From sequence record NC_079181.1: a DNA stretch of 52,615 bases, one strand, 5' to 3'. Source of the DNA: Escherichia phage vB_EcoP_Bp7. Made by a program: the position numbers and the translations under genes. The notes under the pieces were generated by a model. The model ran no database searches. It was given only the letters and a program-made list of their open reading frames with translations, and was not told the origin of the DNA. Every line of letters starts with the position of its first letter. Position 1 is the first letter of the stretch. Positions 1 to 52,615 of this stretch are shown here, piece after piece.

Positions 1-1941
1 ATGACTACTATCACCACTCAAACTATCAAATCCGTTGTTCCTGCTATCACTGCTCTGGTATATCGTGCCAAAGAGAAACAGAACTATATGCAGCCTCAGA
101 CTTGTGCTATTGCTGCCTTAGCCATCTTCAAGATGATGACGTCTTTCACTCGTGATGACGTTGTTCCTGCCATCGCGATGGTTGAGCTGGCTTCTGCTTC
201 TATTGCTGATGCCAACCGTTATAACAACGATTTGAAAGCAATGCACTATGTTGACCCAGCTATCAACCTGATTGGTTTGGCTAAGCACTTTGGCTTCATC
301 ACCATGAACGAAGACAAGTCATTCCAACAAACTGATACATGGGTTGAACTGGTTACAACCAAAGACACAGCAGTGCCATTCACTGAGCGTGTTACATCTG
401 AATCTCGTCGCAAGCCTTTCGTTAAAGGTGGCAAAGTTAAGCCATCCAAAACTCTGAAAGCTGCAATCGAATTCCTGCAAGATACTGAGTACCATGTGGA
501 GACTGAGATGGTTCGCATCATCCAGTCCATGCTTGAACAACGTACCTACGGTGGTTTGCAGATGCCAGAAGCAATCCAGACTGAACTCCATGTTTGGAAC
601 AATGCTGTAGCAATGATGAATCAGGACACACTGTATTCTGATTACTTTGCTGATAACCGTGGTCGTCTGTATCACGTAGCATGTGCTGGTCCTAACCCAC
701 AATCATCTGACTTTGCTCGTTGCTTGTATTCTCACAATGTTGAGAACATCGTTAAGAAGTTTAACGAAGATGGTTCTACTACCATTGCATACAACATGTT
801 CATGGCAGAGCTGGAAGATATTTCTGGTGGTGAATGGTGCAGTGCTAAGCGTTTAACTTATGTTGCTCAGAATCCAGCTGGTTCACTTGCTCGCATGATG
901 AACATGCCTAAAGCTGAACGTCCTTCTAAGCCATTCACTTATGTTCGTCTGGCTCTGGATTGGTTCAAGTTTGAGACTACAGGTGAGTGCGATTCTCGTG
1001 TAGGCTTTGGCTTAGATGCTAAATGTTCTGGTACTCAATATCTGGCATTCATTGCTGGTAACATGGAAATGGCTCGTGCAACAGGTCTGGTTGATTCTGA
1101 GACTAAAGCATCTGACCCATACCAGTTGAGTCTTCGTGAACTGTTGAAGCTGCTGGACAAGTCTTCAATGAAGCCATCTCCTGAAATCATGGATGAATTC
1201 TTGAATCCGAAAGCTGGTCGTAAGTTTATCAAAACTCCGTACATGGCTATCCAATACGGTGGTGGTAAAGCTGCACTAACTGGTTCATCTGACTTCATCA
1301 GCTACATGACAGAAGCACTCCAGATTCCTATGGAGAAAGCAGAAGCATTTGCTGAACTGTGTGTGGAAGCAATCCATAACGCATTGGGTGCTAAGATTAA
1401 CATGTTCATTGAGAAAGCTGCTGAAGCTGCATACAACCGTTGTGTTGAACTTGGTAAAGAGTACATCACATATCGTCACACTGATGGTCAGGTTGTAATG
1501 AAGCCTTGCTTCCCATCTCGTGAAATCTGTGAGGCATTCAGCATTCGTGTTGATAGTCAAACTCGTGTTATCTTTGGTCAGATTCAGGAGAATAAGCCTT
1601 GGACCATTCGTGAATCCAATCCAACTAAAGAAGAATTCAAGCGTACTTTCGTTGTTAACTACATTCAGGGCATTGATGCACTTGTTGCTCGTACTGTTGC
1701 AGTTAAAGCTAAAGAAGCTGGTCTTCGTGGCTTCACTTCAATCCATGATTGTTTCCGTTGCTGTTTGGCAGACGCTCCACGTATGATGGAAGTTATTCGT
1801 GCAGCATATGTTGAAATCTTCGTAACCAACAATCAGTTCGAGAATCTGTCTAAGCAACTCGGTGGCATTCAGATGTATCATGAGAACATCGTAACTGAAG
1901 AGCTTCTGATGAGCGAACACGCTTACTACTTCTGTCAATAA
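1..1941 (+). CDS. T7-like single-subunit DNA-dependent RNA polymerase, compact (646 aa)
   Basis: Palm motifs in translation: motif A GFGLDAKCSGTQYLAF, motif B RKFIKTPYMAIQYGGGK, motif C SIHDCF. ATG at base 1; a GGAG lies 8 nt upstream across the window junction (52604-52607) if the sequence is circularly contiguous. Confidence 0.9.
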   Translation: MTTITTQTIKSVVPAITALVYRAKEKQNYMQPQTCAIAALAIFKMMTSFTRDDVVPAIAMVELASASIADANRYNNDLKAMHYVDPAINLIGLAKHFGFITMNEDKSFQQTDTWVELVTTKDTAVPFTERVTSESRRKPFVKGGKVKPSKTLKAAIEFLQDTEYHVETEMVRIIQSMLEQRTYGGLQMPEAIQTELHVWNNAVAMMNQDTLYSDYFADNRGRLYHVACAGPNPQSSDFARCLYSHNVENIVKKFNEDGSTTIAYNMFMAELEDISGGEWCSAKRLTYVAQNPAGSLARMMNMPKAERPSKPFTYVRLALDWFKFETTGECDSRVGFGLDAKCSGTQYLAFIAGNMEMARATGLVDSETKASDPYQLSLRELLKLLDKSSMKPSPEIMDEFLNPKAGRKFIKTPYMAIQYGGGKAALTGSSDFISYMTEALQIPMEKAEAFAELCVEAIHNALGAKINMFIEKAAEAAYNRCVELGKEYITYRHTDGQVVMKPCFPSREICEAFSIRVDSQTRVIFGQIQENKPWTIRESNPTKEEFKRTFVVNYIQGIDALVARTVAVKAKEAGLRGFTSIHDCFRCCLADAPRMMEVIRAAYVEIFVTNNQFENLSKQLGGIQMYHENIVTEELLMSEHAYYFCQ

Positions 1942-1990
1942 TCAGTAACACTAATTGGGTCAAGGATGACCACAAACTTGGAGACTTATA

Positions 1991-2191
1991 ATGAATACCA
2001 TGCAAATCAATCAAATCGAAAACTGTTTCAATCCTCATCACACCTGTGACATGAGCAACTTATCTCGTCCTACAGTGGAGGAGACTAAAGACTTCTTAGA
2101 ATTGTTAGCAGAATATAAGCAAGAATCGCATGTATTATTGCACGCATATTTGCACAATTCTGGATACTTTGATACAGAGATACCGTTCTGA
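1991..2191 (+). CDS. hypothetical protein (66 aa)
   Basis: ORF with GGAG 7 nt upstream; its initiation region cttggagacttataATG nearly repeats the one at the RNAP junction. Confidence 0.5.
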   Translation: MNTMQINQIENCFNPHHTCDMSNLSRPTVEETKDFLELLAEYKQESHVLLHAYLHNSGYFDTEIPF

Positions 2192-2196
2192 TACTT

Positions 2197-2222
2197 GGGA
2201 GCTTCGGCTCCCTTTTCTTATT
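2197..2222 (+). terminator. intrinsic terminator after the RNAP operon
   Basis: GGGAGC-TTCG-GCTCCC hairpin followed by TTTTCTTATTT. Confidence 0.8.
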
Positions 2223-2266
2223 TCAATTAATTTAAGAGCTGTCTTCAATATCGTCACACAACTCTT

Positions 2267-2285
2267 ACATTAGTTGGATGTGAAG
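2267..2285 (+). promoter_or_regulatory. phage promoter-like motif P1 (acattagttggatgtgaag)
   Basis: Member of a conserved motif family seen at 10 sites; no sigma70 -10/-35 pattern. Confidence 0.55.
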
Positions 2286-2299
2286 TAAAAGAATACGGA

Positions 2300-3135
2300 G
2301 AAATATTCCGCATGTCATGTTGAATCATTCTAGAAACATTCAGCATGTCAGCTTTGAGTTACAGTGTTGTAATGATGTGGCAATCATTGAACTCCCTAGG
2401 TAGGCCACCTACAGTTCCAGCAACCATGACTTAGAGTAGGAATATCTATCCGAAACTTGTACTTCACCTATAGCATGTTCAATTGCGACAATATTGCTCC
2501 ATCTCCTATTATAAAGGCCCACCCACAAGCCGGGAGATAACTTTGGTAATATTGGAACTTTTGGACATGCTTCTTTCTTTCTACAAGAATTCGAAAGAAG
2601 AGAAGAAGTCGGACAAAGCATCTCGTTTGCACGCAGAAGCCGCCCCGATTTTGAGCAACAAATATTGTGACAATTGCGTCGCAGTATGGCATGTAAATAT
2701 TGCTACAAATTGGCATGTTGGAATGTGGCAGAATTGTTAGAGGACTAATCACCTCGAAGATACAATCGTCTACCAATCTGGCATGTTAATTTTGTAACAG
2801 TATTTGTGCCAATTTCGCATGTAGTATTTAACCCAATATTCTTGCAACCCGCATGAATACTGGCTTCCAGCCAAGCGAAGGCTTTATCATCGCATGTAAT
2901 ATTGTGACAATATTGGGATAAAACCCTTTATTTAAATCATTTAGTTTATTAATTAAATGGTCGGTTTTCTGTACATAGGTATTCAGCTGTTTGTGCCAAA
3001 TACAAACAAGTTGGCTGCTTCTACAGAACTCCAGTGCTATAAATGTTCGTGCCAATCTGCTGCAATTTATCTCATTTGGCGGGGTAATATTGTATTAGAT
3101 TGGCATGTCATTCTTTCGATTAGTTGCATGTGAAT
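2300..3135. repeat. non-coding array of degenerate repeats (core GCATGT about 12 times, palindrome CAATATTG about 5 times) with an AT-rich stretch
   Basis: Read directly, e.g. tggcatgtaaat, tggcatgttgg, tggcatgttaat, tcgcatgtagta, tcgcatgtaat, tggcatgtcatt, ttgcatgtgaat; AT-rich 2925-2990; no credible ORF. Confidence 0.6.
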
Positions 3136-3316
3136 AAGACCAAATCTCTGTAAATTCTGTGACAGATTTTAGAGAGATTATGTCTCCAAGCTAATCATTG
3201 CAGTTCTTCGGCACTTGCTGTGTCACATACTCCCTACAACTTTAAGGTGGATTGAGGTAAGACAAGACCTCCACAATCGTTCTGTAGGGAGTTTTCTTTT
3301 AACTTAGGAGAATAAA

Positions 3317-28788: not shown

Positions 28789-30104
28789 TGACTTCCAAGA
28801 AGAAAAATAATCTCTCTGTTAAAGTTGCAGATGGGTTAGAAAACCTTGTAACGGGGTTGGGCGGTCAGGCAGATAAGTCCACTTTTAACCAGTGGACTTT
28901 CTCAAACAAGAACGCGAACTATCGCGAACTTATGAACCGCTTCCGTGAGGATTGGGTGGCACAGAAAGTGTGTACCGTTATTCCTCAAGATATGACGCGT
29001 AAGTGGCGGCATATTGATACCGAAGAGGGACGCAAAGCGGATAAGAAACTTCGTATTCGTAAGCTGTTCCGTGAGGCGTATCAATGGGCCAGATTGTATG
29101 GGACTTCATTTGTTCTGCTCGACCTAAAAGGTACGGGCAAACTTGATACACCATTGCGACTGGATAACTTGAAGACTGGGTGTATTAAATCCATGAGAGT
29201 TATTGACCGCTCACGCTTATTCGCCGCAGGGACTATGGTTCTGGACCCTTTGAGTCCTCACTATGGTTTGCCAGAGTACTACACTTTGGCTGGGTATCCC
29301 GGCTATATCCATTACACTCGTTTCCTTCGGTTCGAGGGTACTGAACTGCCACTGTTCGAATTCCAACGTAACATGTGGTATTCCGATTCGGTACTTATTC
29401 CGCTGTTGAAAACGATTGACCAATTCTACACAACTGCCGCTGCTGCTGCCAGCCTTGCTCAAGAAGCCACAATTGATGTGGTAACTGTCGAAGGCTTACA
29501 ATCTTTGCTCACATCACCGGAAGGTGAGGCTGCTGTGATGAAGCGCTTCAAACTCATGAAGCTGGCAAAGAGTATTTATAACGTCTTAATTCTCGACAAT
29601 ACTGAGAAGTATGACACCAAGTCAATTGCACTGTCTGGTGTGAAAGATTTGATTTGGGAATACTTGAAGATAGTTGCTGCCGCAGTTGGTATTCCGGCTA
29701 CACGTTTCCTTTCTGCATCTCCAGACGGTATGAATGCTACGGGCGAATCTGACCTCGTAAACTATATCGACTTGTTGACTGGCTTGCAGACTTCTGTGTT
29801 TGACCCTCGTTTAGATGTGGTAGACAAGATTGTCCAGGCGCACTTTGGCATTGAAGAATATAACTACGAATGGTTAGACATCTTCCCTGAATCCAATGTT
29901 GAGAAAGCGAAGCGAGCTAAAGATTTGGCATTTGCTGTTGACCTGCTGGTTAACAACGGCACCATTACCACGGAAGTTGCAAACGAAGTCATGTTCCATT
30001 CGGGCGTGTTCGGAACTTGTGACCTTGGTAAGCCAAATCCTAATCCTCCTAACATCCAAAAGGGTAACGCAAGTGAAGCAAAACCAAAACCTGGTTCAGC
30101 TTAA
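28788..30104 (+). CDS. putative portal protein (438 aa)
   Basis: Position between terminase and head genes; AAGGA SD. No motif verified. Confidence 0.5.
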   Translation: MTSKKKNNLSVKVADGLENLVTGLGGQADKSTFNQWTFSNKNANYRELMNRFREDWVAQKVCTVIPQDMTRKWRHIDTEEGRKADKKLRIRKLFREAYQWARLYGTSFVLLDLKGTGKLDTPLRLDNLKTGCIKSMRVIDRSRLFAAGTMVLDPLSPHYGLPEYYTLAGYPGYIHYTRFLRFEGTELPLFEFQRNMWYSDSVLIPLLKTIDQFYTTAAAAASLAQEATIDVVTVEGLQSLLTSPEGEAAVMKRFKLMKLAKSIYNVLILDNTEKYDTKSIALSGVKDLIWEYLKIVAAAVGIPATRFLSASPDGMNATGESDLVNYIDLLTGLQTSVFDPRLDVVDKIVQAHFGIEEYNYEWLDIFPESNVEKAKRAKDLAFAVDLLVNNGTITTEVANEVMFHSGVFGTCDLGKPNPNPPNIQKGNASEAKPKPGSA

Positions 30105-50850: not shown

Positions 50851-51950
50851 TGGCTTACACTACCTTTTCACAAACCAAGAATAACCAACTACTAGAGCCA
50901 ATGTTCTTTGGTCAGAACGTTAACGTTGCTCGATATGACCAACAGAAGTATAGCATCTTCGAGAAGTTAATCGAAAAGCAGTTATCTTTCTTTTGGCGAC
51001 CTGAAGAGGTTGATGTTAGTCAAGACCGAATTGACTATGCTGGTCTTCCTGAATGCGAGAAGCACATCTTCACCAGCAATTTACGATACCAAATCCTGCT
51101 TGATTCCATTCAGGGACGTGGACCAACCACAGTTTTGCTACCAATTGTGAGCATTCCTGAGCTGGAAACCTGGATTGAAACTTGGTCATTCTCAGAGACA
51201 ATTCACTCCCGTTCTTACACGCATATTATTCGTAATATTGTCACAGACCCAAGTGTAATTTTCGACGAAATTGTGGAGAATGAGCACATTAAAATGCGTG
51301 CAATTGGCATCTCCCAATATTATGACGAGCTTCAACATCTAACTTCCATGTGGCATCTGCATGAAGATGAAGTAGACCTTCGTGAGCTTAAGAAGAAGCT
51401 GTATTTATGCCTCATGTCCATTAATGCACTAGAAGCAATCCGCTTTTATGTCAGTTTTGCTTGCTCATTTGCCTTCGCTGAACGCAAGTTGATGGAAGGG
51501 AATGCCAAGATTATTCGCTTAATTGCTCGTGATGAAGCACTCCATTTGACCGGAACTCAACACATGCTGAACCTTCTTGCAAGCGGTGTTGATGACCCAG
51601 AAATGGCAGAAATTGCTAAAGAATGCCGTCAAGAATGCCAACTAATGTTCGAAAATGTAGCCCAACAAGAGAAAGATTGGGCTGATTATTTGTTCAAAGA
51701 TGGCTCAATGATTGGCCTAAACAAGCAAATTCTGTGCGGATATGTGGAATATATCACGAATATTCGTATGCAAGCAGTTGGATTAGATGCTCCATTCAAA
51801 GGTGCTACTAACCCGATTCCTTGGATTAACGCATGGCTGAATTCGGATGCTGTACAGGTTGCTCCACAAGAAACGGAAATTAGTTCGTACCTTGTCGGGC
51901 AGATTGATTCCGAAGTGGACACCAATGCTCTGGGCGGATTTGAGCTGTAA
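50850..51950 (+). CDS. nrdB: class Ia ribonucleotide reductase beta subunit, host-like
   Basis: Near-identical over most of its length to remembered E. coli NrdB ([11 protein letters not shown]..., [40 protein letters not shown]-terminal [14 protein letters not shown]). Confidence 0.92.
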
Positions 51951-52092
51951 CGATTATATGTGAGAAGAGATTCGATGCGTTAGCGTCGTTTCTCTTTGAG
52001 CTAGAATAAGACAAGTAAATTAAATATTTATTTATTCCCAATATTGCTACAATATTAAGAGTAGTATTAGGAATGCGTAAAGTTAAATGGTA

Positions 52093-52149
52093 CATGGTCG
52101 GTCAACTGTATCTGGATAGTAATTCGTTCATGGTCGGTCAGCTGTATCT
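52093..52149. repeat. two 21-bp direct repeats (catggtcggtcaRctgtatct)
   Basis: Copies at 52093-52113 and 52129-52149. Confidence 0.7.
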
Positions 52150-52208
52150 CCTTCGGAGAAGTTATCTCGCCGAAATTTGTTCGAATGGAAAACCGACTAT
52201 TAAATAAA

Positions 52209-52233
52209 TTTTTTTTTTTTTTTTTTTTTTTTT
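52209..52233. repeat. 25-nt poly(T) homopolymer
   Basis: Uninterrupted T run preceded by TAAATAAA. Confidence 0.9.
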
Positions 52234-52330
52234 CAATATTGCTACAGAATTAATGAGACTCAAATTGTTTCAATATTATCGAGACTCGAATTGTTACGAT
52301 ATTAATGAGACTAGAATTGTGGCAATTGCT
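52234..52330. repeat. three tandem degenerate ~30-bp repeats (core atattaNNgagactNNaattgt)
   Basis: attaatgagactcaaattgtt / attatcgagactcgaattgtt / attaatgagactagaattgtg. Confidence 0.65.
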
Positions 52331-52531
52331 CACTTCGCTCGCTTTATATTATAATTTTATTTTTGGGCCAGCGGGGAGGGGAAGCCCAACGTCCTATCGG
52401 ACTTAAAATACGGTCCCTACTCCAACTTTTTCCTACAGCCTATCGGCTTTCAAACAACACCAAGTTAGGCGCTTCGCTTATGGGTCAAGGTCAAAGTCTC
52501 CGTGCTGTTGTAACAATGGCACAGGTTTGTG

Positions 52532-52550
52532 ATATTAGTTGGACGTGAAT
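52532..52550 (+). promoter_or_regulatory. phage promoter-like motif P8 (atattagttggacgtgaat), upstream of the RNAP gene if circular
   Basis: Conserved motif about 65 bp before the window end; RNAP ATG is at base 1. Confidence 0.5.
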
Positions 52551-52615
52551 TGTGTAATGGCTACGCTATTATAATCCGTTTCAGTTAAATCATACACAAT
52601 CTTGGAGACTTACAA

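Follow-up and report, generated by a model that had tools for sequence, protein, structure and literature searches.

A short and complete single-subunit RNA polymerase with a candidate cognate promoter in a Carltongylesvirus genome

How can a T7-like RNA polymerase consist of only 646 residues, and is the protein whole? The question is raised by the first open reading frame (ORF) of the window, by which we mean the entire 52,615-nt stretch of DNA analysed here (sequence record NC_079181.1, Escherichia phage vB_EcoP_Bp7). The original prediction, made from the sequence alone, read this ORF as an unusually compact single-subunit RNA polymerase that is complete rather than truncated, lies in a circularly closed genome, and is driven by a copy, P8, of a repeated promoter-like motif. 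Our analysis confirms that the observation is real and bears out part of its interpretation: positions 1–1941 encode the complete single-subunit T7-like RNA polymerase of a Carltongylesvirus (Chaseviridae, an E. coli myovirus), and to this explanation as a whole we assign a probability of about 0.88.

The polymerase is 99.8% identical in amino-acid sequence to ST32 ORF1, which is annotated as an RNA polymerase, and 92% identical in amino-acid sequence to phiEcoM-GJ1 gp01. Carltongylesvirus is delimited by nucleotide similarity (above 70% to members of the genus; above 95% for one species), which we judged on positions 30001–52610 and on the polymerase gene. The closest records to the window are vB_EcoM_Bp10 and ST32, and the values place the window in the genus: positions 30001–52610 are 98.2% identical to Bp10 over 22.6 kb with 100% coverage and 93–95% identical to DE15, JL1, and ST32, and the polymerase genes of the window and ST32 share 97.6% identity. 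The window also has the features of Chaseviridae, namely a genome of 52–56 kb (52,615 bp here), genes on one strand, contractile-tail genes, and a single-subunit RNA polymerase. Every long ORF lies on the + strand, including late-region ORFs of 482 aa and 1241 aa that, from the annotations of matching relatives, are probably the sheath and tape measure genes. Scans of the whole window for tRNAs and Rfam families gave no matches.

Given the 99.8% amino-acid identity to ST32 ORF1, which is published, we count the gene as known. In particular, publications on ST32 and phiEcoM-GJ1 already give the polymerase gene with its length and ribosome-binding site and place it first, beside the genome end: the table of the ST32 paper lists a 646-aa ORF1, with TGGAGACttacaaATG as its Shine-Dalgarno region, and a 648-aa gp01 for phiEcoM-GJ1. 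The gp01 polymerase was described in 2008. The finding is ordinary for this window, and the remaining interest lies in a family-specific N-terminal module and in a model of promoter use and autoregulation.

Completeness of the 646-residue polymerase

The gene and its start region, the latter read across the junction between the last and first bases of the window, comprise the following elements:

1..1941, + strand: RNA polymerase ORF, 646 aa, with ATG at base 1 and TAA at 1939-1941
52604-52607, + strand: GGAG, 8 nt before the polymerase ATG
52586-52588, + strand: in-frame TAA closing the polymerase frame upstream of the ATG, also in ST32 and Ecp_YSF
52601..52615, + strand: translation initiation region cttGGAGacttacaa, GGAG included, the same as the published Shine-Dalgarno region of ST32 ORF1

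The last bases of the window read ...cagtTAAatcatacacaatcttGGAGacttacaa. The in-frame TAA lies 30 nt from the polymerase ATG, and no ATG, GTG, or TTG occurs between this TAA and base 1. The 12-mer CTTGGAGACTTA has two + strand sites in the window, one at 52601 before the polymerase and one at 1977 before a small ORF at 1991–2191, versus 0.31 expected by chance. The ATG at base 1, the GGAG, the in-frame stop, and the repeated initiation region are thus all present as originally predicted.

The junction is contiguous in relatives. A probe that joined the final 1000 bases of the window to its first 600 gave a single unbroken alignment with Ecp_YSF, and the portion of the probe that falls within the ST32 record aligned as one stretch over the join; both relatives carry the identical TAA, GGAG, and ATG there. 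A search of 5.8 billion proteins returned 119 homologue clusters, extending down to 35% identity, and almost all of these are 626–670 aa long. In a 41-sequence family alignment, on which residue conservation was judged throughout, a median of 230 residues (range 206–360) precedes the DX2GR motif, versus 420 in T7 RNA polymerase, and the near-invariance of P14 indicates that the N-terminus of the polymerase is conserved. An N-terminal polymerase segment encoded elsewhere, which the original prediction had named, together with non-contiguous ends, as the finding that would overturn completeness, was sought in the window by tblastn with T7 residues 1–330; nothing credible was found (best E = 0.012, on the non-coding strand).

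These results bear on the alternative that the enzyme extends beyond the 646-aa ORF, either because a separate N-terminal subunit is encoded elsewhere or because the gene is cut by the window edge. The N-terminal domain of T7-like polymerases normally exceeds 300 aa, N4 RNAPII (gp15 + gp16) provides a precedent for a two-chain split, and the gene is annotated at 704 aa in Bp10, JL1, Mangalitsa, and the cluster representative P0001. The longer annotation, however, is explained by a 174-nt insert between the upstream motif and the polymerase ATG. The insert is a 58-codon ORF with its own TTGGAGACTTAtcATG ribosome-binding site and its own ATG that is by chance in frame with the polymerase, and relatives that carry it still keep the internal TTGGAGACT...ATG of the polymerase. 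With the stop codon 30 nt before the ATG, over a join that relatives show to be continuous, a length of about 630–670 aa maintained down to 35% identity, and the tblastn match on the wrong strand, we reject a split or truncated enzyme, which has become scarcely credible.

The position of the insert (Mangalitsa 200–385; also in JL1 and Bp10) corresponds to the interval between window positions 52600 and 1. The common ribosome-binding sequence, which also stands at 1977, resembles a junction for the swapping of small gene cassettes.

We conclude from the continuity of the junction, the length of the protein across the 119 clusters, the number of residues before DX2GR together with the conservation of early residues, and the absence of a T7-N-terminal-like segment elsewhere that the polymerase is complete and uncut by the window edge, and that it is short by nature, lacking the T7-type promoter-binding N-terminal domain. 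Completeness, as originally proposed, is thereby upheld. The description "unusually compact" is apt relative to T7 but not within the published family, for which about 646 aa is the norm, and N4 RNAPII is comparably small.

Polymerase core and N-terminal region

The Pfam family RNA_pol (PF00940) matches aa 323–621 with 66.4 bits (cut-off 22; E = 2.9e-18), above the gathering score, and all catalytic motifs of T7-like single-subunit RNA polymerases are present. No other Pfam family, the T7-type N-terminal family included, reaches its cut-off in a scan of the polymerase at E <= 1. A family profile search finds T7 RNA polymerase at E = 1e-14, and hhalign pairs aa 153–620 with T7 317–853 at a probability of 97.2%, with nothing in the polymerase aligning to T7 1–316. 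A full-length structure model (pLDDT 91.3, pTM 0.85) predicts a right-hand polymerase fold, with T7 and mitochondrial RNA polymerases as its nearest structural matches. The core comprises the following elements:

457..651, + strand: thumb region, shortened, aa 153–217 (hmmsearch and hhalign against T7 317–420; 39 residues shorter, 65 vs 104)
652..666, + strand: DX2GR motif with D218, R220, and R222 (T7 D421, R423, and R425), invariant in the 41 sequences
1015..1017, + strand: motif A catalytic Asp D339 (T7 D537), invariant in the 41
1219..1260, + strand: motif B with R407, K411, Y419, and G420 (T7 R627, K631, Y639, and G640), invariant in the 41
1516..1644, + strand: predicted beta strands where T7 has its specificity loop (T7 ~739–776), aa 506–548, from the model and hhalign
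1744..1749, + strand: motif C with H582-D583 (T7 H811-D812), invariant in the 41

In the model, the specificity-loop region is predicted to form strands at 506–510, 513–516, 522–525, and 534–537. Promoter-specific, rifampicin-resistant transcription by this single chain is its putative activity as a T7-like enzyme.

The differences in length from T7 RNA polymerase are distributed as follows:

N-terminal domain (152 vs 316): -164 residues
Thumb: -39 residues
Palm: +5 residues
Between motifs A and B: -22 residues
Between motifs B and C: -9 residues
C-terminus: -8 residues

The original prediction had assigned about 200 missing residues to the N-terminal domain. The deficit is indeed mainly N-terminal (164 of 237), but 39 residues are missing from the thumb, and the remainder consists of small trims in the fingers and at the C-terminus.

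The 152 residues that precede the thumb form two parts:

1..360, + strand: family-specific N-terminal module, aa 1–120, predicted winged-helix-like fold, net charge approximately zero
361..456, + strand: conserved basic linker before the thumb, aa 121–152, consensus RRxxxVKGGKVKPSK, with R136, K142, and G143 nearly invariant

This N-terminal region is predicted with high confidence, with lower values in the linker (pLDDT 73–86), which has 9 basic versus 3 acidic residues. The model of the module contains helices at 57–74, 76–81, and 87–96, followed by a hairpin at 100–110. When the region was modelled separately, a structure search returned winged-helix matches; against predicted viral structures, the only matches were the phiEcoM-GJ1 polymerase and, marginally, the polymerase of Shewanella phage Spp001. 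A search of 1.84 billion representative sequences with the N-terminal sequence gave 13 matches at E <= 0.001, and those that span most of the query are polymerases of the chasevirus family or fragments thereof. The T7-type N-terminal promoter-binding domain, with its AT-rich recognition loop and intercalating hairpin, has no detectable counterpart here by sequence or by fold.

Since the module is neutral, its putative recognition helix is hydrophobic, and the basic residues lie in the linker, we call the fold only winged-helix-like; the module could bind DNA, serve as a scaffold, or dock a partner protein. Our literature searches for a winged-helix N-terminal domain or a "smallest" single-subunit polymerase returned nothing relevant except N4 RNAPII, and in the literature searched the reduced, non-T7 N-terminal region of the chasevirus polymerase is not described.

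Genome form, repeated motif, and candidate promoter

The window is one unit-length genome, rotated to start at the polymerase ATG, because a search for internal duplications across the window found none. The Chaseviridae record VPs20 is likewise written from the polymerase ATG. The "circular" appearance of the window is a convention of sequence writing: of the circularly closed genome in the original prediction, the continuity of sequence across the junction stands, but a circular molecule does not, the DNA of the family being linear and terminally redundant. Specifically, the ICTV profile gives Chaseviridae DNA as linear and non-permuted, its terminal redundancy being repeats of about 3 kb, and in the PYps23T paper restriction mapping, ligation PCR, and direct sequencing demonstrate direct terminal repeats. 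Both copies of the repeat, exact and with the polymerase gene inside, are present in the records of JL1 (2995 bp), Y2 (2608 bp), PM1 (2665 bp), and PYps23T (2339 bp), and in Mangalitsa a PhageTerm-predicted repeat lies at 1..3234. Homology to these records places the putative repeat in the window as follows:

52400..52615, no strand: putative direct terminal repeat, left part, with its left end at ~52400 between cctatcg and gacttaaaatacgg, by homology to the record ends of Y2, PM1, JL1, and Mangalitsa
1..2610, no strand: putative direct terminal repeat, remainder, which holds the polymerase gene, gp2, a terminator, and one motif copy, for a total of ~2.83 kb

The right repeat edge of JL1 corresponds to window position 2610 and that of Mangalitsa to ~2625, and the edges of Y2 and PM1 fall in the homologous stretch. 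By this homology, the virion DNA would be linear, with a direct terminal repeat of ~2.8 kb and a length of ~55.4 kb in all. As the repeat includes the polymerase gene, each virion DNA would carry two polymerase copies.

A genome that is truly circular or circularly permuted by headful packaging, with physical closure, is very unlikely. The records of ST32, Ecp_YSF, and VPs20 are labelled circular, and the PYps23T paper notes both an earlier suggestion of circular permutation in GJ1 and a resemblance of the terminases to headful-type enzymes. However, fixed direct terminal repeats were shown for PYps23T, the terminase of which is 97% identical to that of GJ1; the ICTV wording for the family is "terminally redundant, non-permuted"; and the repeat edges lie at homologous positions in four independent records.

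Several sequence elements cluster at the putative left terminus of the linear, terminally redundant genome. The octamer CCTATCGG stands at the terminus itself (52392–52399, cgtCCTATCG/Gac, with the slash at the terminus) and is repeated 47 nt inward (52439–52446, cagCCTATCGGctt). The internal octamer copy, AATACGGTCCC, and GTCAAnGTCAA blocks are conserved from E. coli phages to Erwinia and Pectobacterium phages, and the octamer and conserved blocks are candidate terminase or end-recognition signals. Immediately outside the putative left repeat edge is an AT-rich non-coding stretch (52005–52335) that contains three direct repeats spaced by 26 nt (52238–52326), two TCATGGTCGGTCAnCTGTATCT copies (52084–52149), a run of ~25 T (52209–52233), and AATATTGCTACA copies; this stretch could be an origin or packaging region. 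The sequence AATATTG(C/T)(T/G)ACAA occurs in 9 copies, versus 2.3 expected, clustered in 2490–2914 and 52040–52277. All of its copies lie within the two non-coding regions that flank the putative repeat, often beside GCATGT.

Within the putative repeat, the polymerase gene is flanked by the following elements:

52521..52555, + strand: P8, candidate cognate promoter, with core TTAGTTGGACGTGAA at 52535-52549, 66 nt before the polymerase ATG; sixth of 8 by matrix score
1991..2191, + strand: gp2, small ORF of 66 aa, PHROG 20790 (function unknown), preceded by CTTGGAGACTTA; a variable cassette
2197..2222, + strand: intrinsic terminator-like hairpin GGGAGCTTCGGCTCCC followed by TTTTCTTATT, which closes the polymerase-gp2 unit and is retained at the PYps23T right end
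2270..2284, + strand: next motif copy, TTAGTTGGATGTGAA, directly after the terminator

The 16-nt motif ATTAGTTGGAyGTGAA has 11 + strand matches in the window at <=3 mismatches, versus 1.74 expected by chance, and the core of P8 is one of them, as originally predicted. Eight sites are strong (2270, 3120, 7105, 7494, 11555, 13521, 21489, and 52535) and three are weaker (11414, 26518, and 41027). In a scan with a matrix built from the eight best copies, the top 11 sites were all on the + strand, and the best - strand score was far lower. Nine of the 11 sites lie outside credible genes; each of the remaining two is at the 3′ end of a short ORF immediately before the next gene. The copies are mostly intergenic, in the early and middle region, and the best are followed by purine-rich sequence.

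The motif is conserved in relatives. The copy upstream of the polymerase is retained in Mangalitsa, PYps23T, PP101, PM1, and Y2, and every Cleopatravirinae genome examined has one copy 36–81 nt upstream of the polymerase start, the position of which relative to a conserved GGCTACGC...AATCC block varies between genera. The motif is common to PP101, PM1, and Y2, whose polymerases are ~70% identical, and to a relative integrated in Hafnia alvei (53%). In the Nefertitivirinae, VPs20 (polymerase identity ~35%) instead carries (GGGCTCG...)CTCGCCCACTAG as its + strand motif, at 2318, 2352, 2473, 3555, 8238, and 20997; it is reminiscent of T3/T7 promoters, and three of its copies lie just downstream of the polymerase gene. 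This pattern makes it plausible that the motif is the cognate promoter and changes together with the enzyme. It is likewise plausible that P8 drives the polymerase gene in a self-activating loop, and that P8, the polymerase gene, gp2, and the terminator form a self-activated unit. The PP101 paper hypothesised eight phage-polymerase promoters.

In the mechanism that we propose, a first round of transcription, most likely the work of the host RNA polymerase, would make the enzyme. The enzyme would then recognise a promoter of ~20 bp with the consensus aACATTAGTTGGAtGTGAAg, the copies of which (8 strong and 3 weaker) lie on the coding strand, mainly between early and middle genes. The somewhat divergent copy 66 nt before the polymerase ATG would provide positive feedback, and the polymerase transcript would stop at the hairpin and T-run at 2197–2222.

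Several points weigh against this model and against the placement of the genome ends. P8 differs from the consensus in both the upstream part and the initiation part. None of the VPs20 motif copies stands upstream of the VPs20 polymerase gene, and autoregulation is therefore not a family-wide rule. The ICTV profile (2022) states that chasevirus promoters have not been identified, and the literature searched contains no transcript, biochemical, or structural data and no purification for a chasevirus polymerase. A scan of the + strand of 51900–52615 for sigma-70 consensus promoters found none, and no convincing host promoter for making the first polymerase molecules was seen between the putative left end and the ATG. 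Finally, the termini are deduced from relatives alone, and the repeat edges of PYps23T differ.

Two sigma-70 candidates were noted by eye, a TATAAT at 52570–52575, which is a perfect -10 element with no usable -35 element, and a weak TTGTAA-N17(TG)-GATATT overlapping P8. Both were left unsupported, because neither is conserved in PM1, Y2, or Mangalitsa. The motif itself was also considered as a sigma-70 -35 element (TTGGAT), and the copies have no consistent -10 element at 16–19 nt.

The PYps23T ends raise the alternative that the motif is a strand-specific nick, processing, or packaging site and that P8 is not a polymerase promoter. Such repeated, strand-specific nick sites occur in T5, phiKMV-like, and LUZ24-like phages, which gives the alternative a precedent, and the late-gene half of the window holds few motif copies. 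In PYps23T, the ends of which are experimentally derived, the two repeat edges each fall within a motif copy, at the same point of it: CGTGAA... begins the record and ...ATTAGTTGGA ends it, equivalent to window points 52543/52544 and 2278/2279. The coincidence could reflect a role of the motif in end formation, a nick site that mimics ends, or mapping ambiguity within shared bases. However, the edges of Y2, PM1, JL1, and Mangalitsa lie elsewhere, ~135 nt before P8 on one side and ~330 nt past the 2270 copy on the other; the copies are intergenic, just before gene blocks, with purine-rich starts after them that recall T7-type promoters; and the motif varies along with the polymerase between the two subfamilies. 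We consider a nick or packaging site unlikely and prefer the motif as a candidate promoter.

The adjacent gene gp2 was considered as an obligatory cofactor of the polymerase, given co-transcription and the common ribosome-binding site. We dropped this idea because gp2 is absent from ST32 and PP101 and belongs to a PHROG without known function. A trans-acting specificity factor for the polymerase may exist, with gp2 not conserved.

After the polymerase-gp2 unit, positions 2192–3316 form an unusually long stretch (~1.1 kb) without a convincing gene. It contains the motif copies at 2270 and 3120, the putative right repeat edge at ~2610, and many short repeats.

The Hafnia alvei locus (NJFP02000002.1, 6881–21947, within a 4.8-Mb bacterial contig) encodes a polymerase homologue of 648 aa, with integrase, holin, and endolysin genes before it and, after it, small early-type ORFs, ArdA, and further copies of the motif. 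By gene content, it looks like an integrated temperate relative of a family that is described as strictly lytic. Comparable chromosomal matches occur in Pseudomonas and Lelliottia (clusters P0107, P0079, and P0116).

Comparison with known single-subunit polymerases

As a single chain of 73 kDa, the polymerase, if it has a promoter of its own, would make a useful compact tool for orthogonal transcription, and it would reveal to what extent promoter recognition and escape can proceed without the T7 N-terminal domain. A more far-reaching view is that the enzyme represents the smallest single-chain T7-like lineage, in which the refolding T7-type domain has been replaced by an unrelated winged-helix-like module of ~120 aa plus linker, and which recognises duplex aACATTAGTTGGAtGTGAAg unaided and sustains a self-amplifying loop from within the terminal repeat, with two gene copies per virion DNA. 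We regard this view as possible but doubtful. If true, it would imply upstream promoter recognition and promoter escape unlike those of T7, and a new minimal orthogonal transcription system.

The closest known enzymes, those of ST32 and phiEcoM-GJ1, have the same length, ribosome-binding region, gene order, and position as first gene beside the left genome end, and differ by point differences only. Like ST32, the window lacks the 58-codon upstream cassette of Bp10, JL1, and Mangalitsa; its small downstream ORF is unlike that of ST32.

Mitochondrial RNA polymerases rely on the initiation factors Mtf1 and TFB2M. Those of yeast (Rpo41, PDB 6ymv) and human (POLRMT) are much larger than the window enzyme and have N-terminal extensions, with an identity of only ~16%.

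The window enzyme is 237 residues shorter than T7 RNA polymerase (883 aa; PDB 1cez and 3e2e). T7 residues 1–316, which carry the AT-rich recognition loop and the intercalating hairpin, are without detectable counterpart in sequence or fold, the thumb is 39 residues shorter, the fingers insertion is ~22 residues shorter, and the C-terminus reads YYFCQ rather than FAFA. The arrangement of promoters also differs: T7 has no T7 promoter upstream of its polymerase gene, the first, phi1.1A, being directly after the gene.

N4 RNAPII has 673 aa in two chains (gp15, 269 aa, and gp16, 404 aa; PDB 6dt7), with a truncated N-terminal domain and thumb; it is inactive on duplex DNA and needs single-stranded DNA and gp2 for recruitment. 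A virion-packaged polymerase, as in N4, is absent from the 4HA13 virion proteome table, which covers only proteins with >=50% coverage and is thus weak negative evidence. Like N4 RNAPII, the window enzyme has a reduced N-terminal region (152 vs 316 residues in T7) and a reduced thumb (65 vs 104). N4 RNAPII is a heterodimer, whereas the window enzyme is a single ORF with a confident single-chain model. Unlike N4 RNAPII, the window enzyme is also predicted to keep a hairpin of specificity-loop size, and this is accompanied by a conserved promoter-like motif of ~16–20 bp.

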